DNA of 64,000 bases. Source: Caldilineaceae bacterium. GTDB taxonomy: Bacteria > Chloroflexota > Anaerolineae > Caldilineales > Caldilineaceae. This document shows, piece by piece, positions 5,459 through 27,339 of the stretch. The notes under the pieces were generated by a model. It was given only the letters and a program-made list of their open reading frames with translations, was not told where the DNA came from and made no database searches. Both the position numbers and the translations under genes were made by a program. Position 1 is the stretch's first letter, and every line of letters begins with the position of its first letter. The stretch is taken from NCBI GenBank assembly GCA_965116185.1, contig OZ220492.1:675662-739661 (forward strand), written 5' to 3'.

Positions 5459-5764
5459 ATGAAAACGTCCACACCGGCCCCGATTCCGGAAAGCCGGTTT
5501 GCCACCGAGTACAGTGAAGTCTGGGATCAGGAAGTCTTTTGCGTCACGAATAGCCAGGGCCAGAAATTTTACCTGCATACAGCCAACGTCACGATTGAGG
5601 GCGATGAATTCTCATCCCTGGCCTTCCGGCGCCAGATCCGGCGAGGTGCCCAGCCGGTCCTGCCCGACGGTTATATTGTAGTGGAGGCTACCAATGGTAT
5701 CCCGATGGTGCAGCGGGCTCGGCACACGGATCTCGGGATCGAAGATTTTGATATTGATTTCTGA
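5459..5764 (+). CDS. hypothetical protein (101 aa, no recognised domain)
   Basis: ORF with GAAGGA about 8 nt upstream of the ATG. No competing ORF of similar quality. Confidence 0.45.
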   Translation: MKTSTPAPIPESRFATEYSEVWDQEVFCVTNSQGQKFYLHTANVTIEGDEFSSLAFRRQIRRGAQPVLPDGYIVVEATNGIPMVQRARHTDLGIEDFDIDF

Positions 5765-5864
5765 ATTGAACTTGATGTTACCGGCACGGTTTGCCAATAA
5801 TGAAATAGGCTCGCACTACCCTAGGAACGGAGCAGGCCCGGGCTAGAACAGCAAGGAGTTGACT

Positions 5865-6947
5865 ATGATACGCGCTGCGGTGCTGCACACCCCTAATACG
5901 CCTCTGGAGATTAGGGAATTTGAGTTGCCATCCCTCAAGGCCGGTGAGCTGGAAGTACGCCTCGTAGCCAGCGGTGTCTGTCATTCCGACTGGCATATCG
6001 TCAAGGGCGAATGGTCCCACATGGAACTGCCCTGTATCCTAGGGCACGAGGGGGCAGGTATTGTGGAAGCGACGGCTCCTGACATCCAGGATATCCGGGT
6101 GGGCGATCATGTTATTCTTTCCTGGAAGCCCAGTTGCGGCTATTGCGAGGCCTGCCAGAAGGGCCATCCGGTTGTCTGCGGCATGGAACATGACCAATCC
6201 TCGGCGCCCCTGTTGCCGGACACGAAGCAACCGATGCTGAAAATGAATGGTTTGGGCACATTCAGCACCCGCACCATCGTGCAACGGACCAATGTCGTGC
6301 CCATACCCCGTGACATGCCTTTGGACCGCGCAGCCCTAATCGGCTGTGGAGTCATGACCGGGGTAGGAGCCGTTATTAACACGGCGGGTGTGGAGCCTGG
6401 CAGTGCCGTGGCCGTTTTCGGCTGTGGCGGCGTGGGCCTGAACTGCATTCAGGGTGCCCGGTTGGCGAATGCCTGGCCCATCATCGCCGTAGATCTGCTG
6501 GATAACAAGCTGGACATGGCCCGGGCTTTCGGGGCCACACACGTCATCAACGCGGGCCGGGAAGAGCCGGTTGCGCGCATTCAAGCTCTCACGGACGGCC
6601 TTGGAGTACACTACGCGTTTGAGGCGATCGGTCTGACCGCCGAGCCTTTCATCCAGTGCCTGGAATGTGTGCGGCCGCGCGGAGTTGCCGTATATGTCGG
6701 CCATGCGCCCGTAGACACGGAGCTCAAGCTAGACGCGCGTATGTGGATCGCGGAAAAGACAGTAATAGGTTCTCTGTATGGGTCCGCCCGCACCCAGATT
6801 GACTTTCCGCGTATCGTCCGGCTTTACCAGGAAGGCAAACTCATGATCGACGAGTTGGTGAGCCGCGAATTTCCACTTGAAGGAGTCAATGAGGCCTTTG
6901 CCGTGCTCGCCCGGGGCGAGGTGGCTCGCAGTATTCTACGCATGTAA
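5865..6947 (+). CDS. zinc-dependent alcohol dehydrogenase (class III / MDR family)
   Basis: GVCHSDWH, GHEGAGIVE, the structural-Zn Cys cluster CGYCEACQKG and GCGGVGL. AAGGAG lies 6 nt before the ATG at 5865. Confidence 0.9.
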   Translation: MIRAAVLHTPNTPLEIREFELPSLKAGELEVRLVASGVCHSDWHIVKGEWSHMELPCILGHEGAGIVEATAPDIQDIRVGDHVILSWKPSCGYCEACQKGHPVVCGMEHDQSSAPLLPDTKQPMLKMNGLGTFSTRTIVQRTNVVPIPRDMPLDRAALIGCGVMTGVGAVINTAGVEPGSAVAVFGCGGVGLNCIQGARLANAWPIIAVDLLDNKLDMARAFGATHVINAGREEPVARIQALTDGLGVHYAFEAIGLTAEPFIQCLECVRPRGVAVYVGHAPVDTELKLDARMWIAEKTVIGSLYGSARTQIDFPRIVRLYQEGKLMIDELVSREFPLEGVNEAFAVLARGEVARSILRM

Positions 6948-7079
6948 GGTGGGTCAACGATGTATGCCGTGGCCTGTAGTTGCGCTCAGCCGGTTGTAGC
7001 GGCACAGGTCGGGACACCTATAGTGTACAGACAGGTGAACGGGTAGGTCACGCGAATACAGGCAGTGAGGAATAAGTAC

Positions 7080-8216
7080 ATGTATGACTCGCGTATTGTA
7101 CGTATTGAATGGGCTCCCCTGCCCGGCCAGCGACCACGGATGGCTCACATGAATGCACGTCTGGATGCTCATGGCCAGGATGTAGCTGCACTGCTCATGC
7201 GCCTTGAAACCGAGGACGGCCATGTGGGCGTGGGTTGGTCTAACTGCCCGCGGACCAACGCCGGTGCTTTGCTAGGGCAATCACTCCGGAATGTGTTTCC
7301 TACCGACACGGGGCCCGCGACTCTCTGGAAGAATTTTGAATTTCCGCTTTGGGATCTGGTAACCCGTATGGCAGGTCAGTCCGTCCGGACTTTCCTGGCT
7401 ACCGCACATGGCACCGCCCGGATTGTCCCGGAGGTACGGTGCTATGACACTTCACTCTATATTGACGATTTGCATCTGCAGGATGACGTGGCGGCCGTTG
7501 CCCTGATGCAGGAAGAAGCGCGGTTCGGGTACGACAACGGACATCGGGCTTTCAAGATCAAAGTGGGCCGTGGGGGGCGCCATATGCCCCTGGAAGCCGG
7601 TACGGTGCGGGACATTGCAGTCATCAAGGGTGTCCGGGAAGCGGTGGGACCTGACTGTCTCATCATGATTGACGCCAACAACGGCTACAACCTGAACTTG
7701 GCCAAACGGGTGCTGGCGGAAACCGCCGCCGCTGATCTGTTTTGGTTAGAAGAAGCATTTCATGAAGATCCCGTGCTCTACGAAGATCTCCAGCAGTGGA
7801 TGCAACGGGAAGGCCTGTCTGTGTATATAGCCGACGGAGAAGGTCTAGCAGCACCATCTCTACTGGATTGGGCCCGAACGGGTTTAGTGAATGTCATCCA
7901 ATACGACATCTTTGCGTACGGTTTTACTCCCTGGCTCAGACTAGGGCGGCAACTGGACGCATGGGGTGTGCTCACGGCACCGCATCACTATGGCCGCATT
8001 ATCGGCAACTACGTGAGTGGACATCTCGCGGCGGTGGTGGAAGGGTTCACCTTTGTGGAATGGGATGAAGCCACTACCGCGGGTTTGGAACCTGGCTATA
8101 CGGTGCATGAGGGTCTGATCCAGTTTCCCGGGACGCCCGGTTTTGGTATGGAGCTGGATCTGGAGCTTTTCCGCACTCATGTGGCCCAGAACGGATATCA
8201 ATGCAGTATGATCTAA
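7080..8216 (+). CDS. enolase-superfamily enzyme (mandelate racemase / muconate lactonizing family)
   Basis: FKIKVGRG, IMIDANNGYNL, FWLEEAF and IADGEG, the metal-ligand pattern of the family. GAGGAA lies 7 nt before the ATG at 7080. Confidence 0.8.
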   Translation: MYDSRIVRIEWAPLPGQRPRMAHMNARLDAHGQDVAALLMRLETEDGHVGVGWSNCPRTNAGALLGQSLRNVFPTDTGPATLWKNFEFPLWDLVTRMAGQSVRTFLATAHGTARIVPEVRCYDTSLYIDDLHLQDDVAAVALMQEEARFGYDNGHRAFKIKVGRGGRHMPLEAGTVRDIAVIKGVREAVGPDCLIMIDANNGYNLNLAKRVLAETAAADLFWLEEAFHEDPVLYEDLQQWMQREGLSVYIADGEGLAAPSLLDWARTGLVNVIQYDIFAYGFTPWLRLGRQLDAWGVLTAPHHYGRIIGNYVSGHLAAVVEGFTFVEWDEATTAGLEPGYTVHEGLIQFPGTPGFGMELDLELFRTHVAQNGYQCSMI

Positions 8217-18178: not shown

Positions 18179-18427
18179 ATGGAGATGATCAACAAGCGGG
18201 TCTTGCGGGATTTGCGAGAGGCCGGTATGGAACGGGATCAGGCGGAAGCCGTCGCGTCCCACATTCCTGATTGGAACCAGTTTGCGACCAAGGATGACAT
18301 CCGGGCGCTTCAATTGGAGTTGGGCCGGATGGAAAAGCGGCTCATACGGTGGATAGTCCTACTTTTGGTCGTCTCCGTGCTCCTGACCTTGATCGGGGTG
18401 ATCAGCCCGCTTTTTTATTTTCTCTAG
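18179..18427 (+). CDS. DUF1640-like tail-anchored coiled-coil protein (copy 1)
   Basis: MEMINKRVLRDLREAGMERDQAEAVASHIPDWNQFATKDDIRALQLEL...C-terminal TM. GAAGGAAG lies upstream. A paralogue sits at 18702. Confidence 0.7.
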   Translation: MEMINKRVLRDLREAGMERDQAEAVASHIPDWNQFATKDDIRALQLELGRMEKRLIRWIVLLLVVSVLLTLIGVISPLFYFL

Positions 18428-18701: not shown

Positions 18702-18938
18702 ATGGAGATGAGCAACCAGTGAGCCTTGCAGGGTTTATGGGCAGCAGGCATGGATCGTGATCAGGTTGAGGCTGCCACGACCCATATCCCGGATTGGTCA
18801 CAGTTTGCCACCAAGGCTGATTTGGAAGGGGCCTTAAAGGACCTAAAAGGGGAACTGATCCGTTGGATGGCCCTATTACTGGCGGCCCCGCTGCTTCTTG
18901 CCCTGATAGGGGGTCTGGTGACCCTGTCCCTTCGCTAG
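18702..18938 (+). pseudogene. DUF1640-like paralogue (copy 2) with an in-frame TGA at codon 7 (18720-18722)
   Basis: GGAGG-N8-ATG GAG ATG AGC AAC CAG TGA GCC TTG... gives MEMSNQ*ALQGLWAAGMDRDQVEAATTHIPDWSQFATKADL. It aligns residue for residue with copy 1, and the stop falls opposite Arg7. Confidence 0.65.
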
Positions 18939-20713: not shown

Positions 20714-22313
20714 TTACGCTTCAAACTGACTGAAAGCGTGAGCCATCTGCTGTCTATCGCCTGGTAAGTGCAGGGGCGGTGGTACTGTCTCGTTCTTGAA
20801 CTTCTGCGGCCGTTGCAGGCAGAGCTTGGCGAAATCGCATTGCCCACACTTGGTGGCATGGGGACGCATGGGGAAATCAGCGTTTAGTATGCCTTGGACA
20901 GCCCATTCCACATTGCCGCGAGCAGTTTTCAGAGCATCCGGGGTAATAGGTACCACAATCCGACGTCCGTCTTTCAGGAAATGTACGTTACCGGTTTTGG
21001 CGTTCTGATCCAGCACCTGTTCCGCCGCTGTGGCGTACAGCTGGACCTGCAATGCTAGAGAGGTCCAATTCAGATCCGTGTTGTCATCGACTGACGGTCC
21101 CCCTTCCATTGTCTTGAAATCAATGACTTCCGCATCAAGGATGGTACCCTGCTCGTTCTCCCGCAACAGCAGATCAATAGAGCCCGTAATCGTACAGTCT
21201 TGAGCCGGAATTTGAAAGGTGGCTTCTACTTGGCGTTCACGTATGAAGTCCGCACCAAACTCCTGGGCATAGTCCTGGATGATTGCCACCGCCTGTGTGC
21301 GGGCCCTTTCAAAGGGTCCTGGATGCTGGTCTGGATCCTGACTGGCCGAGACATGTTTCAGGTAAAATGTGTCTGCTATCACCTGTGCTACCTGTTCCGG
21401 GTTGGGTGTGCTGTCCAGATAGCGTTGGTGGAGTTGCTGGATGAGACTGGCCGTACCCGGACATTTTCTTGCGGACAGGCCCGAAACCATACTGTTCGCG
21501 GAACTGGTAGTTCCGTGGACACTGCAGATAATGCTGGATTTCGGAGAAACTGGTCGGGTAGTCGGTTTCCTCGATTCGCCGGCGGGCTTCGGCTGTAGGC
21601 AAATCGGACAGCTGTTCATTCTCGCCACCGCCGGATGCTCCGCTAGCCAGTTAGCATAGTCAGAGAGTTTGCGCTTTCTTTTCCCGCCCGGTAGTTTGAT
21701 ACTCCCGCTGACGTAGAGATAGCGTTCCGCCCGAGTCACGGCAGTATAGAACAGGCGTGCTTCCCCATTAGCCTCCGTTTGATATGCGCCGCGCTCAAGT
21801 GCGGATGCCATGATCGTTTGAGGTACCCAACCCTTGTAATCAGACTTCCTACGCGGAAAACTTTGGCCTTCCACGTCTACTACAAACACACAGGGGAACT
21901 CAAGGCCTTTCAGCCATGGACCGTGGACACTGTGCTGTGACCACATCTGGCCTTGGCCCAGGATCGTCGGTAGCTGTATCGTACCTCTTGGTCCCGTGTT
22001 GCAGGAAGTTGAGCACGGAAGCAAAGCCTTGCTGTGAATCAATACGCGTGTACACGGTGGCCACATCCTGCAACATACGACTGAAAAGACCAATATCTCG
22101 CATCATGTCGTCCGCCCGCTTTCCCCAATCCGTAGTGGCCAGGTTGTAGGCATCCAGCAAGTCATACAGTAGCTCTTGGAGATAGAGAGGTTTGGGGGAA
22201 CTGCTCTGCGGACGGTGAATACGGTGCCCCCATTGAGATAGAATCCAGACCGAGGCATCAAAGTCAGCGCAGGAGTAAGCAGGTAGTACCATCTCCTTAA
22301 AAAATAGCTCCAC
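20714..22313 (-). pseudogene. SF1 (UvrD-like) helicase C-terminal region fused to a Cas4/AddB-type PD-(D/E)XK nuclease with a CX2CX5C cluster. It has no motor domain 1A and at least 3 frameshifts.
   Basis: Motif V KGLEFPCVFVV and motif VI RLFYTAVTRAERYLYVSG. The nuclease start TSFSEIQHYLQCPRNYQFREQYGF is readable only in an alternative frame (track ORF 21309..21602). Also GSIDLLL, VIDFKT and KCGQCDFAKLC. Frame breaks lie near 21921-21944, 21610-21660 and 21437-21452. Confidence 0.75.
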
Positions 22314-22343
22314 TTGATTGTGGTGCGGGTTGTCTTTGCATAT

Positions 22344-23108
22344 CTATTCGTCAGGTTCATGCCCGCGTCCATTCCGCATGCACGGTACAGGCTGTGAGCT
22401 GGATGCTGCGGACCGTGATCTTGGCATCGGACCATCCAGGGCCACGCGTGCTACGGTCCAGCCTTCCACCTGACAGTCAATCAGTGGGGCATCGCTACGA
22501 AAGGTGTCTAGGGCTGCGGTCTGGACAGAGACGAACAGTGCCGAGGGAATTTCCAGTAGCTGGTAGCGCTGCGGACATCTCTGGGCATCCCGGAAGGCGC
22601 ACAACATCACGATCGCGTCCACCGCTTGCTGATACTCCTGAAAGAGCTGACAGGTCTGCTGGCGGCGGTCCGCGGCCGTGCGCGTATCCTGGATCCACGC
22701 GGCTTCCGTCAGTTTGGAAATATGGACGTGGGTAGGTGACAATTTCTGCGCGGCCGTTGATTTCAGGGACAGCCGGCGGTAGTTGCCGGGGTGTGTCTGC
22801 ACGGTGAGATCCACAAAGCGCTGGGTGGCACTTCCCGGTGGCTCCAGGGCCCAGCCGACCGACACACAGGCATCCCGGAAGGCAGTCTCAAAGAGTTTCA
22901 GTCTTAAAGGTTCCTCGGTCAAGGCATGATGGGCCGAGAGTGCCGGACCAAAATACTCGATCCAGTCGGGTTCGCGGGTCAACCAGGTGTCAGCTTGACA
23001 GATAGCAGTTGATGGTGGCTGCGCCAAGGCTTCCACCACGCGGGCAACAAAGCGGACCTGGACGGGCGACATGCGCTCCAGCTGGGCCTTGAGCTGTGCA
23101 AGTGTCAC
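22344..23108 (-). CDS. orphan 254-aa protein; candidate restriction-endonuclease partner of the adjacent methyltransferase (weak PD-(D/E)XK-like E...D...SxK pattern)
   Basis: The GTG start overlaps the MTase stop (GTGA at 23108-23105). FETAFRD...RFVDLTV...LSLKST is a possible catalytic pattern. The C-terminal 30 aa look like low-complexity read-on. Confidence 0.45.
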   Translation of the reverse strand: MTLAQLKAQLERMSPVQVRFVARVVEALAQPPSTAICQADTWLTREPDWIEYFGPALSAHHALTEEPLRLKLFETAFRDACVSVGWALEPPGSATQRFVDLTVQTHPGNYRRLSLKSTAAQKLSPTHVHISKLTEAAWIQDTRTAADRRQQTCQLFQEYQQAVDAIVMLCAFRDAQRCPQRYQLLEIPSALFVSVQTAALDTFRSDAPLIDCQVEGWTVARVALDGPMPRSRSAASSSQPVPCMRNGRGHEPDE

Positions 23109-23987
23109 AGGTCACGCATCCTATGCGCAATCAGATCTACAAAAGCCGGCTTAAGTTCAATGCCTACCCAAGGACATCCCCGTTCCGCGGCCGCCAGCAG
23201 TGTGGTACCGGATCCGGCATAGGGATCGAGTACCACGCCACCGGGACGACCGGTAATCGCTACACAGCGACGTGCCAGGGCCAACGGCATCGCGGCAGGA
23301 TGCCGCGTCGGGACCCCGTTGCGGTTCCGTGGGAATGTCCCAAACCGTGCGCAGGCGGCGGCCATTCGGTCCCTGGACCGCCTGTATGTTATAGAAGTAG
23401 TCCTGTTGCCGAGAGAGCAGAAAAAGCGTTTCGTGGGCTTTGGTCGGGCGATCCCGGACGGACTCCGGATGAGCATTGGGTTTGTGCCAGATTACTTCGG
23501 AGCGCAGCCACCAGCCCGCTGTCTGCAGGGCAAAGGCGAGGCGCCAGGGTACTCCAATCAGATCCTTTGGTTTCAGACCGTCTGGGGTAGGCGGACGTAC
23601 GGGCATGGCGCGTGCGCCATTCTTGCGGTCGGGCGCACGGTAACGCCGGTTGCCCGATGTGTAGGAGTCCCCCACGTTCAGCCAGACCGTGCCATCCGGA
23701 CGCAGGACACGCTGTAGTTTCGTGAACACCGCGATGATGGCGGCCACATAGTCAGGTAGGCCATCGTTGCGTCCAATCTGATCGGTCACTCCATAATCGC
23801 GCAGTGACCAGTAGGGCGGTGACGTAATCACGGTCTGCACGGATGCATCCGGCAGCAGGTCCAGGGCCTGACCGGCATCGCCACCGATGAGTAGAGAAGA
23901 GGACAGGGTACGGAACGGGGCTTGGTGTGGTGGAACCTGGAACCGCTGAAAGGAAATTGTACGGTCAACGGCGGCAGCCACACTCAT
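23105..23987 (-). pseudogene. beta-class (motif IV before motif I) N4-cytosine/N6-adenine DNA methyltransferase, frameshifted near 23300-23325
   Basis: VITSPPYWSLRDYG (motif IV) lies in ORF 23157..23987. HPAAMPLALARRCVAITGRPGGVVLDPYAGSGTTLLAA (motif I) lies in overlapping ORF 23105..23476. The junction ...RTVWDIPTEPQRG / HPAAMP needs a 1-nt correction in a cggggtccc stretch. Confidence 0.8.
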
Positions 23988-24823
23988 ATATCAATCTCTC
24001 TTGTCGCTGGTGGTCTGTGCGTGTCCTGACGGGGTGCAGGCCTGCGAGGATCCAGTATGGCTTCAATGCGCGCCTGCAGGCGGTCCCGCAGATCCGCGGG
24101 GTCTTTCCAGATCGGGTGGTTGAAATGGCTGGTATCAAAATGGACATCCTTAATACAATTCTCACGGCAGGTGAAAATCACATCTAAATTCAGATCCTGG
24201 GCGAATCCCGCCTCGTAGTAGACACCACCCCGTGCACCATCGGCGCCACAGGTGAAGTCGGCCACCACAAAACGTGACTGGCGGATCGCCGCGATGATCT
24301 AATCATCTATCTTGCCCAGGAAATGGTACTGGTCCACCCGGTAGGGATCGTAGCCCGCGGCTTCAATCGCCGGTTTGAAGCCCTCGGTGTAAACCTTATC
24401 CATACAGGGATCAAACCACATGGCCACAAAGCCTCGGCGGCCTTGGCCCACAATACGGTCCCGTGCTTCTACGTACATACGAGCGGACGGGCTTACGGAT
24501 TGGAGGTGCCACCCGGAGTGAAATACACTAACTTTGGCCCACCCTTGGTCTTGCACATACGCCCAGAATTCGCCAAACTCTCCATCTCGGTAACAACCAC
24601 TGGCGGCCCAGAGCCAGCCTCGACTCTCACCGATCCCAGCAGACTCTTGGTCATCCACCAGAATCAGTTTACGTAGGAACGACAGGCTCCGATCCTCAGT
24701 AGGGGGTATCCGGTCCCTGTGATTTTCCACCCAAGACTGGTCTAGTACGAGTTCTCCCCCAGGCACGGTTTTGATTGCACCGCTGACGACGGGAGTACAA
24801 AGCTGTCTGTGTATATACGGCAA
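23984..24823 (-). pseudogene. two-domain protein: unknown about 125-aa N-domain plus a nucleoside 2-deoxyribosyltransferase/TIR-like C-domain, interrupted by an in-frame TAG at 24299-24301
   Basis: ...RRGFVAMWFDPCMDKVYTEGFKPAIEAAGYDPYRVDQYHFLGKIDD*IIAAIRQSRFVVADFTCGADGARGGVYYEAGFAQDLNLDVIF... The two track ORFs (24299..24823 and 23984..24268) are in the same frame. The stop overlaps the MTase start (ATGA). Confidence 0.7.
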
Positions 24824-24858
24824 AACGGCACAGCCGCCTGCACCTTGCAGGTATTCTT

Positions 24859-27339
24859 TCAGGTTCGGTCAAGCTCCTGGTCGGACCAGAGTAGTGTGAC
24901 TGCATCCACTGAGCTGTCGGGGGGTAGGTCGGCTAAGACACGGCCCTGGGCACTGCGGCTCAATTCCGGAATGTGAGACCAATCCAGCACTAGGGTGCTA
25001 CGTCCCGCACTCACAGCGATCTTGGCGGTGTCCTGCTGGGCGTCCGCCGTCAGCACACCGGCAACCTGGCCCGTTCGACTGTTCAGTTTGTGACTGTTTA
25101 GACCACTGCCTACGCGCCCCTGCAGAGTAAACTCATCGATCGGCGTACGCTTGGCGAATCCATTGCAGGTAACGGAGAGTACGGAATAGGTCGGCTGTGT
25201 CAGGGAAGCGGCAACCAGACTGTCCTGGGTTCCGATCTTCATGCTCAGCACCCCTTGTGCACCCAGACTCAAAGGCCGTACCTCCGTTTCCCGGAAACGA
25301 ATGGCCTTGCCCTGGGTGGTGAAGAGCATTACTTCATGTGTACCCTGGGAGAGTAGTACCCAGTTGAGGCGATCCCCTTTCTGCAAACCGATTACTTTCA
25401 ATTCCTCACCGGGTGCTTCTAGCAAGTGTTGCACCGCGATGCGCTTGATACGGCCCAAAGTTGTGACCAGACAAAGGTATTCCTGGTGGGTGGGATGTGC
25501 GTCACGGGGCAAGGAAATGGCAGCCACGATGGTGTCACGGCGCGTGAAGCCGGTCAGGTCCGCGACATGCTGGGGAGAACCCGACTGGGGAATCCGGTGG
25601 ATTGGTACGCGCCGACATTTACCCTCGGCACTGAAAAGATAGAGCATGTCACGGGTGTTGGCCACCATGGCGGACAGGCTACTGTGACGCCCAATGTCCC
25701 GGAAGCGTCCGCCACGCATACCCCGGTAGGCGTAGCGTTTGGCAGTACCACGGCGCCCCATGGCCACCCAGACAGTCTGATCCGGTTCCAGATCCTCTAG
25801 TGCCAGCGATTGGACGGACTGCTCCACAATACGGGTCCGGCGTGGATCAGCGAATTCCTGCCGGAGCTGGCTCAAATCCGAACGGATCTGGGCTCGGATC
25901 AAATCGTCGGATGCCAGCAACTGTTCCAGATGGCGGATCCGGCGCACCAGATCGCGGAATTCCTCTCTTAATTGTCGGATTTCAAGCGCTACCAGCTGAC
26001 GTAGAGGCATGGCGAGAATGGCCTGGGCCTGGACATCGGTGAATTGGAACTGGCGTTGCAGATTAGCCCGGGCCGTGTCAGGGCGACGGCTTTGCCGAAT
26101 GGTGCTAATGACCTCGTCTAACACGTCCAGGGCCTTGAGAAGACCTTCCACAACATGCAGTCGCGCTTGAGCTTGCAGAAGATTGTAGGCTGTGCACCGG
26201 CGCACAATATCGTGGCGGTGATCAATGAAGTGCAGCAATAGGTCCTTCAGATTGAGACGCTGCGGAGTGCCGTTGACCAGGGCGAGCATGGACAGGCTGA
26301 ACGTTTGCTGCATGGGGGTATAAGCAAATAGCTGGGCAATGACCTTGGGGAGCACTGCCGTACGGGAACACTCAATGCAGATCCGCATACCGGCTCGGTC
26401 ACTCTCATCCCGGATATCGGCAATACCTTCCAGGGTGCCCTGCCGGACTAGGTGGACAATCCGTTCAATTAGGTGCGTCTTGTTCGTGAGATAGGGAATT
26501 TGGGATACTACGATACGCTGGCGGCCCATACTCATGTCTTCGGTATGGATCTTGGCCTGTACTGTAAGGCGGCCCCGCCCACGGGCATAGGCATGGAGCA
26601 GGCTGTCCTCCGGTTCACTGCCCTTGGCCCTCTGCGTATGGCGATACAACAACCCGCCCGTGGGAAAATCAGGACCCTGGATAAAGCGCAATAGGTCCTG
26701 GACTGTGATTTGATCCCGCTCTGCATACCGGTCCAGCAGGTAATCCAGAGCGTCACAGATTTCGCCCAGGTTATGGGGGGGGATTTGGGTTGCCATGCCG
26801 ACCGCAATGCCATTGGCACCGTTGACCAGCAGATTGGGCAGTGCGGCGGGCAACCGAGCAGGTTCCTGCAAGGAAGCGTCAAAATTGACGACCCAGTCTA
26901 CCGTTTCCCGGTCCAGATCCTGCAGCATAAGGCGAGACAGGGCGGATAACCGCGCCTCGGTATAACGCATGGCGGCCGGATTGTCGCCATCAATGCTGCC
27001 GAGGTTGCCTTGACCGTCAATGAGTGGATAACGCAGGCTGAAGTCCTGGGCAAGCCGCACCATGGCGTCATAGACGGATTGATCGCTGTGGGGATGATAT
27101 TTCCCCAGTACTTCACCCACAATACGGGCACTTTTCCGGTAGGACGCAGTATGGTGTACCCGTAGATCGTGGTGCATGGCATACAGGATGCGGCGCTGCA
27201 CCGGCTTGAGCCCGTCACGTACGTCCGGCAACGCACGGCTGACAATTACACTCATGGCGTAATCGAGATACGCCACCTGCATTTCTTGGGCTAGTTCAAC
27301 AGTGTGCCGGGGCTGACTGTGACCGTTAGACGTGCTCAT
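24859..27339 (-). CDS. gyrA: DNA gyrase subunit A (type IIA topoisomerase A subunit)
   Basis: [27 protein letters not shown], active-site [10 protein letters not shown], 826 aa with a beta-pinwheel C-terminal domain. The GyrA-box is degenerate (YRGMRGGRF). Confidence 0.9.

Follow-up and report, generated by a model that had tools for sequence, protein, structure and literature searches.

We analyzed a stretch of 64,000 nucleotides from a Caldilineaceae bacterium (contig OZ220492.1, positions 675,662 to 739,661; the whole stretch is called the window below), focusing on an interrupted gene on its minus strand at 23984..24823. This element is very probably a pseudogene. It derives from a widespread family of stand-alone, three-part proteins encoded in defence islands, which likely act in single-protein abortive infection. 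The remnant comprises 279 codons including an in-frame TAG, and has been damaged twice, by the loss of about 75 codons at its 5' end beside gyrA and by the nonsense codon. Because the first domain is deleted and the TAG lies in the catalytic domain, the copy is inert: it is a pseudogene in a decaying island, with no present function. The locus itself is a dead gene without consequence for the cell, and its value is that of a pointer to a large unannotated family.

Reading frame and lesions of the remnant

The minus strand reads as a single frame from 24880 to 23984 (...YHFLGKIDD*IIAAIRQSRFVVADFT...), with a TAG at 24299..24301 (complement strand) as the sole interruption. The open reading frames (ORFs) 24299..24823 (174 amino acids, TTG start) and 23984..24268 both lie in this frame. 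Three domain hidden Markov models (HMMs), termed N-terminal, mid and Cdom, were made from an alignment of 100 relatives. Cdom profile positions 1-46 matched directly before the TAG (E-value 3.5e-17) and positions 48-130 directly after it (E-value 5.7e-40). Since the two halves flank the TAG with one column between them, the stop replaces exactly one codon, without an indel or a frameshift. In 61 of the 62 relatives scored, this column contains glutamate (49 cases, 31 GAG and 18 GAA), arginine (7) or glutamine (5), and a stop at this position is therefore not conserved. The initial annotation had described two ORFs in one frame that read through one TAG inside a conserved fold, as a single gene with one nonsense codon. 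The shared frame, the location of the stop and the unity of the gene were borne out by the frame and the HMM matches, but the gene has been damaged twice, as the N-terminal domain is deleted too.

The window copy retains the middle and C-terminal domains. The middle domain (24443..24748, minus strand; mid HMM E-value 3.4e-20) is winged-helix-like, being built of three helices, a wing formed by a beta-hairpin, and a linker helix, and is acidic across the family. The C-terminal domain (24050..24439, minus strand), matched by Cdom, resembles nucleoside 2-deoxyribosyltransferases (NDTs) and TIR domains. It is broken by the TAG, with the invariant motif GARGGVYYEAGFA kept; the GAG codon at 24212..24214 (minus strand) encodes a glutamate from an invariant alignment column, E204 of the read-through protein. 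The first 25 codons from the TTG (24749..24823, minus strand) are poorly conserved in the alignment and have a predicted local distance difference test score (pLDDT) of about 50. They are the leftover of the helix that closes the deleted N-terminal domain.

No remnant of the N-terminal domain itself was found by HMM in any frame of the window, and a relaxed search of 24600-25600 gave only matches with E>0.6. By the same domain HMMs, all three domains are located within a single ORF in about 65 of 78 related loci. The stop codon of gyrA is 36 bp upstream of the TTG at 24823, and gyrA itself, intact in the ORF list with 826 amino acids (24859..27339, minus strand), marks the 5' truncation boundary. 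As no relative adjoins gyrA or uvrB, no intact orthologous locus can be used for dating the lesions.

Among 61 highly conserved columns, the window copy departs from the family at 5, compared to a family mean of 4.6%. The deviations, among them a change of the near-invariant glycine in FAxGL to aspartate and the loss of the terminal GxGP, suggest that constraint has been mildly relaxed.

Independently broken copies (TAG, TGA, TAA, frameshifts, insertions) make up about 10% of the related loci, a pattern typical of costly or toxic defence genes. We found TAG in L007 and L082, TGA in L015, TAA together with a frameshift in L056, and frameshifts in L002 and L008, while L016 (second copy) and L065 are fragmented. 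The stops in these copies are located at sites other than the TAG column of the window.

A large family with three conserved parts

The family returned 3,630 matches in a collection of 5.8 billion proteins, and 579 loci among species-representative genomes. Full-length uninterrupted homologues, for which the initial annotation had recommended a search, thus exist in large number (>3,600 matches, typically 320-350 amino acids). The close matches are uninterrupted, are about 320-350 amino acids long, lack Pfam annotation and come in many cases from metagenome-assembled genomes (MAGs) of Caldilineaceae (Chloroflexota).

Three conserved parts are apparent in alignments of the relatives. The N-terminal part (about 75 amino acids) has a near-invariant C-P-I-W and S-P-R-A-G-G-x-[FY], followed by the helix LTDRQKANLSYWIYKHN. 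The middle part (about 100 amino acids) has the consensus WVE.HRDR.PS..DR.L.FLRELI...AAGGC...DL.EL..YA.DQGW. The C-terminal part (about 135 amino acids) has the consensus QGFVAMWFD...AGY...IDDEI.AEIR.SRFVVADFT...GARGGVYYEAGFA.GL..PVI.TC....VHFDT.H.NH..W.

The gene is often present in several copies. At least four paralogues are found on one 4.3 Mb Caldilineaceae chromosome (contig OY760647.1; loci L007 and L010, proteins P0009, P0017, P0041 and P0044), and L010 is a tandem pair of full-length copies (5659..6723 and 6988..8124). Copies were also located on plasmids of Bacillus, Leptospira and Bradyrhizobium. Distant members include WP_002187268.1 on plasmid pBMX_1 of Bacillus mycoides ATCC 6462 (L084, 5458..6411) and a protein on p4 of Leptospira interrogans (L085, 5575..6546), encoded between a SEFIR-domain protein and a 772-amino-acid S-adenosylmethionine (SAM) methyltransferase. 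In phages, tblastn gave no family match.

Two further observations concern the carriers. A copy in a Nitrosopumilaceae archaeon MAG (L014) shares 47% identity with the window protein and is similar to the Caldilineaceae copies, which could be due to inter-domain transfer within a shared habitat or to a binning error; this copy and that of L013 (Caldilineaceae) both have a long upstream in-frame extension. The record titles of loci L005-L082 contain many sponge-associated lineages (Poribacteria, Candidatus Poriferihabitaceae, Tectimicrobiota), with bin names such as SB06xx, IRC, APA, RHO and Langseth, and suggest, without statistics, that the family is enriched in sponge symbionts.

Fold class of the C-terminal domain

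The designation NDT/TIR-like, already given to this half of the protein in the initial annotation, is correct as a fold class, and no curated family has the domain as a bona fide member. We used an AlphaFold2 (AF2) model of the full-length relative P0002 (mean pLDDT 90.7) for Foldseek searches. Matches to its C-terminal domain had a probability of 1.0 throughout, at modest E-values of about 1e-3. TM-scores normalised to the target were 0.71 for the BcmB CMP N-glycosidase (4jen), 0.5-0.64 for nucleoside 2-deoxyribosyltransferases (7o62, 6qai and 2a0k among the fold matches), about 0.6 for DNPH1, and 0.56-0.65 for the TIR domains of SARM1, AbTir, SPARTA and TIR-STING. Among viral models, the best matches were a CMP/hydroxymethyl-CMP hydrolase and NDTs.

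Sequence matches were weaker. The read-through window protein had no Pfam match at E<=1 and nothing useful in NCBIfam, and a profile search of PDB sequences gave chance matches only. The NDT model PF05014 matched 75 of the 100 relatives, all below the gathering score (best E-value 6.3e-6; P0131 scored 16.5 bits at a cut-off of 28.8). PF10137 (CAP12/Pycsar TIR) matched 6 of them and TIR_2 one, all weakly and below curated thresholds. The PADLOC TIR effector model PDLC00733 matched all 100 relatives with E-values down to 1e-13, and the window protein with 3.6e-6.

Profile and structure searches could have assigned the domain elsewhere, and found an NDT/TIR-like fold. For NDTs, Foldseek identified the flavodoxin/Rossmann-like fold, and the gathering score of PF05014 was not reached. 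For TIR NADases, the TIR-type fold with a conserved glutamate was found, and the gathering scores of PF13676, PF01582 and PF10137 were not reached. The glutamate in GGVYYEAGFA is invariant across the family alignments. Judging from motif and fold, it probably occupies the catalytic glutamate position of the NDT/DNPH1-type ExG motif, equivalent to Glu98 of NDT.

An acidic winged-helix-like domain and a putative zinc-ribbon derivative

The first 125 residues or so of the window protein had been regarded as an N-terminal domain of unknown type. They are in fact the middle domain of the family and winged-helix-like, the true N-terminus having been deleted. Window residues 1-125, modelled using the family alignment (pLDDT 83, residues 1-25 low), form three consecutive helices and a hairpin, plus a linker helix. 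Nearly all of the top 50 Foldseek matches of the middle domain were winged-helix proteins (among them MarR, PadR, ArsR, Sso10a, F-93 and the ORC2 winged helix), at weak E-values of 0.05-0.5, and the secondary structure of the models agrees with the winged-helix topology H-H-H-beta-beta.

The charge of the domain is unusual for a DNA-binding protein. Over 100 relatives, the mean net charge was -4.9 for the whole middle domain and -2.3 for the third helix, which is in the "recognition" position, so that the basic recognition helix and wing for DNA contact are missing. The acidic nature of the domain speaks against DNA binding of the classical kind and in favour of binding to protein.

In the AF2 model of P0002, the N-terminal domain consists of two short hairpins and helices. 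The Bacillus mycoides plasmid homologue has CPVC...CENCG (CxxC...CxxC) in this region and thus a true zinc ribbon, from which we conclude that the N-terminal domain of most members looks like a zinc ribbon without the metal ligands. The domain may therefore be regarded as putatively zinc-ribbon-derived.

The same module is combined with different effectors

A single-sequence search of 1.84 billion representatives with the window middle domain gave 34 matches, which are too few to size the distribution of the module (P0127 and P0146, which are repeat proteins, were left out). Three proteins (P0134, P0137 and P0143; P0137 is locus L086, 6001..7431) have the same N-terminal and middle domains (E-values 1e-20 to 1e-29), followed by a canonical TIR_2 domain that scores above the gathering threshold (PF13676, E-value about 1e-19). 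This TIR_2 domain resembles ThsB, and in PADLOC it matches the candidate PDC-S66. P0133 and P0135 carry the module too, here ahead of an unrelated helical domain about 150 amino acids long. It contains LRNFRNYIHP, which fits the HEPN Rx4-6H pattern and is a possible HEPN motif; Pfam, PADLOC and PDB gave no match that would confirm it.

The occurrence of one module with different C-terminal domains indicates that the front module is portable and the effector exchangeable, including against bona fide TIR domains. The suggestion that the front part is a candidate sensor is thereby supported, in the sense of a separable sensor or regulatory module. The exchange for a true TIR domain also suggests that the NDT/TIR-like domain does an equivalent job, which would most simply be NAD+ hydrolysis.

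Genomic contexts of the relatives

We scanned the nearest neighbour on each side with Pfam in 73-77 loci. Upstream neighbours included N6_N4 methylases (4 loci), HsdS (4), N6_Mtase (2), a Type ISP enzyme, an AbiEii-like ATPase and SIR2. Downstream, we found UvrD helicases (4 loci), ApeA (2), XamI, HsdR and a C5 methylase. Other defence-island contexts contained a NotI fragment, or DEAD-MZB and UvrD helicases. The gene is flanked by hsdS and hsdR in 6-7 Dehalococcoidia loci (including L018, L022, L031, L036, L045 and L047), within a type I operon that also has a HEPN/MNT pair. In about five loci it directly follows a 990-amino-acid N6_N4 methylase, and in several a UvrD helicase is next downstream; some loci have the large N6_N4 methylase on one side of it and the UvrD helicase on the other.

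Neither arrangement is present in most loci. All-against-all clustering of flanking ORFs, in which much of the signal was spurious antisense ORFs in GC-rich DNA, and the Pfam scans of nearest neighbours identified no conserved partner gene. The neighbourhoods, with their defence islands, hsdS/hsdR pairs and methylases, fit the proposal in the initial annotation of an abortive-infection-type effector in a restriction-modification context.

The islet downstream of gyrA

The locus is most simply read as a restriction-modification and defence islet in decay, located downstream of gyrA. The window copy sits directly ahead of a type II methylase-endonuclease pair, and its TGA overlaps the ATG of the methylase (ATGA). 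The N4/N6 DNA methyltransferase (23105..23987, minus strand) occupies two frames that part near a GGGG run (about 23313-23316), with PF01555 profile positions 1-123 and 159-219 in separate ORFs; either a genuine frameshift or an indel of the assembly could account for this. It is followed by a putative type II restriction endonuclease (22344..23108, minus strand) that is weakly SmaI-like (PF17411, E-value 7.2e-5, below the gathering score). The ORF of the endonuclease appears uninterrupted beside the split methylase, and the endonuclease is possibly dead if the methylase is truly broken.

Next comes what remains of a fusion between a UvrD-like helicase and a PD-(D/E)XK (Cas4-like) nuclease (20714..22093, minus strand). 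Only the last third is kept, with the end of UvrD_C and the nuclease domain, and the helicase core of roughly 550 amino acids is gone. Short ORFs next to it (21900..22313 and 22103..22435) had no Pfam match. By comparison, uvrB (668 amino acids), gyrA and other long ORFs of the window read cleanly. The split methylase and the truncated helicase-nuclease next to clean gyrA and uvrB indicate decay of the islet rather than recoding.

Scans for tRNA genes and Rfam families gave nothing near the island. Elsewhere in the window, two small paralogous ORFs of 82 and 70 amino acids (18179..18427 and 18726..18938, both plus strand) share the motif DRDQ.EA...HIPDW.QFATK.D and end in a hydrophobic C-terminal tail; 18179..18427 has no Pfam match.

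Alternative explanations

The TAG might be a consensus or assembly error, in an intact and expressed gene for an N-terminally truncated two-domain variant that still works, which we consider unlikely. Such a variant would fit with the retention of all family-invariant C-terminal residues, including the YYEAGFA glutamate, with a conserved-column deviation inside the family range, with the operon-like overlap of the remnant and the methylase, with the equal lack of the N-terminal domain in L001 and L037, and with the methylase frameshift at a homopolymer, where assembly errors occur. Yet in an assembly with clean gyrA and uvrB, a stop would rarely arise from a substitution error, and the missing 75 codons or so are kept by most relatives. 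The window copy has also lost the glycine of FAxGL and the C-terminal GxGP motif, and the adjoining helicase-nuclease is grossly truncated; the two large truncations are impossible as sequencing errors. That the TAG is decoded, whether through programmed read-through or by insertion of pyrrolysine or some other amino acid, and a full-length protein made, is extremely unlikely. The presence of TAG also in the broken relatives L007 and L082 could be cited in its favour, but there it is at different positions, and other copies are broken by TGA, TAA or frameshifts. With a stop that is not conserved, other copies broken in other ways, and TAG in use as the terminator of 5 of the 37 long ORFs in the window, recoding has little to recommend it. 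The window showed neither a recoding signal nor pyl genes, the latter without a genome-wide search.

It is also quite unlikely that the family is not a defence family at all, and instead represents a housekeeping enzyme (a nucleoside 2-deoxyribosyltransferase or one of nucleotide salvage) that carries a DNA-binding domain for regulation. The PGAP product name of the Bacillus and Leptospira homologues is indeed "nucleoside 2-deoxyribosyltransferase", and true NDTs as well as DNPH1 are among the best structural matches. Against this, no member reaches the PF05014 gathering score, a ThsB-like TIR domain can take the place of the catalytic domain, and the winged helix is acidic, unlike that of a DNA-binding regulator. 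The family is furthermore patchy and multi-copy, as illustrated by the four paralogues on one 4.3 Mb chromosome, with about one copy in ten broken, and its genes are found on plasmids, in defence islands and inside restriction-modification operons.

Some observations weigh against a pseudogene of a defence family, which nevertheless remains our preferred reading. The TAG is read from the assembly sequence, and the family is known here from sequences, models and contexts. A shorter form lacking the N-terminal domain might retain some activity, since according to the domain HMMs L001 and L037 are also without it; the L001 copy adjoins a truncated NotI fragment and looks more like a second pseudogene than a functional short form. 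The window protein and most relatives are below the Pfam gathering scores for NDT or TIR, and the Foldseek E-values behind the fold assignments are modest, with about 1e-3 in the case of the C-terminal domain and 0.05-0.5 in that of the winged helix. A possible assembly indel at the GGGG run of the methylase could weaken part of the argument for a decayed island. Finally, there is no conserved partner and most immediate neighbours are unrelated, so that the link to restriction-modification is a tendency and not a rule.

Proposed function and comparison with known systems

The family has hallmarks of a defence gene, namely location in defence islands and restriction-modification operons, multiple copies, frequent inactivation and a swappable effector. 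No known defence-system model covers it as a family of its own. We infer its defence role, trigger, substrate and mode of activation along the following lines. In an intact member, the N-terminal and winged-helix module would sense a cue from the phage, which is probably a protein and not DNA; for some lineages, it could be the status of a linked restriction-modification enzyme instead. Upon sensing, the C-terminal domain would be released or would oligomerise, and would then cleave an N-glycosidic bond. The most likely substrate would be NAD+, as for TIR enzymes, with a nucleotide, as for DNPH1 or MilB, as the alternative.

We tentatively propose, at somewhat less than even odds, a new single-gene abortive-infection system. 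A zinc-ribbon-derived and acidic winged-helix module would recognise a phage protein, or the inhibition of a linked enzyme in a PrrC-like manner, and would gate interchangeable effectors. These may be the NDT/TIR-like N-glycosidase, the ThsB-like TIR domain and the helical domain with a possible HEPN-type motif. It is more speculative, and by analogy with MilB and DNPH1, that the NDT-like effector might hydrolyse modified nucleotides (hydroxymethyl-dCMP, hydroxymethyl-dUMP). If this were true, phages that evade restriction by base modification would be the exact target. Cultured carriers (for example Bacillus mycoides ATCC 6462 with plasmid pBMX_1) make the prediction directly testable.

Membership of a known family could not be established by sequence for NDT, TIR, DUF4062 or CBASS effectors, and the sensor module has no curated model. 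The C-terminal domain shares the flavodoxin/Rossmann-like fold and the succession of beta-strand, Gly-rich loop and Glu motif (VVADFT...GGVYYEAGFA) with NDT N-glycosidases (PF05014, DNPH1, MilB/BcmB) and TIR NADases (SARM1, AbTir, ThsB, SPARTA, CAP12/Pycsar). In contrast to these enzymes, its sequence is sub-threshold for each such Pfam family, and the HFD and NHxxW motifs are family-specific. For CBASS or Pycsar, no cyclase family was found among the recurrent neighbours of the 73-77 loci or in the window island. The NDT-like effectors of type II retrons (Eco1/Ec86-like) serve abortive infection and likewise combine an NDT-like effector with an N-terminal accessory region. However, no reverse transcriptase was found among the recurrent neighbours of these loci, and no PADLOC retron model matched.

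PrrC is a latent toxin that is held by a type I enzyme and freed by a phage anti-restriction factor (PMC1484252, PMC2610378), and genes of this type provide a latent back-up defence that comes into play when restriction is blocked by a phage. The 6-7 Dehalococcoidia copies between hsdS and hsdR are in the prrC position, and by analogy a PrrC-type trigger is plausible for copies embedded in hsd operons. In contrast to the PrrC/RloC anticodon nucleases, the effector is NDT/TIR-like and not an ABC-ATPase-linked RNase, and most relatives, like the window copy, are outside a type I operon.

Abi N-terminal domains fused to NDT, TIR or HEPN were predicted by Anantharaman et al. 2013 (PMC3710099). As in these Abi-NTD proteins, a single polypeptide combines a non-catalytic N-terminal module with a C-terminal toxin-type domain, the genes are found in defence islands, and one module occurs with different effectors (NDT/TIR-like, canonical TIR, and helical with a possible HEPN-type motif). 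The difference is in the module, since CPIW/SPRAGG together with the acidic winged helix matches no Pfam model, including AbiJ-NTD, and has not been described under those names.

By analogy, the closest mechanistic precedent would be Swarozyc, a DUF4062 TIR-like NADase with an auxiliary HTH (helix-turn-helix)/winged domain that binds the phage portal, whereupon the enzyme is activated (bioRxiv 10.64898/2026.05.01.722283). DUF4062 (PF13271) is absent from the Pfam matches of the 100 relatives, the domain order is reversed, with the effector of our family at the C-terminus, and the family adds the putatively zinc-ribbon-derived N-terminal domain. Both are single genes that join a TIR/NDT-like domain with a conserved glutamate to a winged-helix-type accessory domain. 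The winged domain of Swarozyc binds protein and not DNA, and the acidic winged helix of the family fits protein binding. Together, these comparisons are consistent with a family that would work like the single-protein sensor-effector Abi/TIR systems, and that, if so, would add a new sensor module to the TIR/NDT-based immunity proteins.

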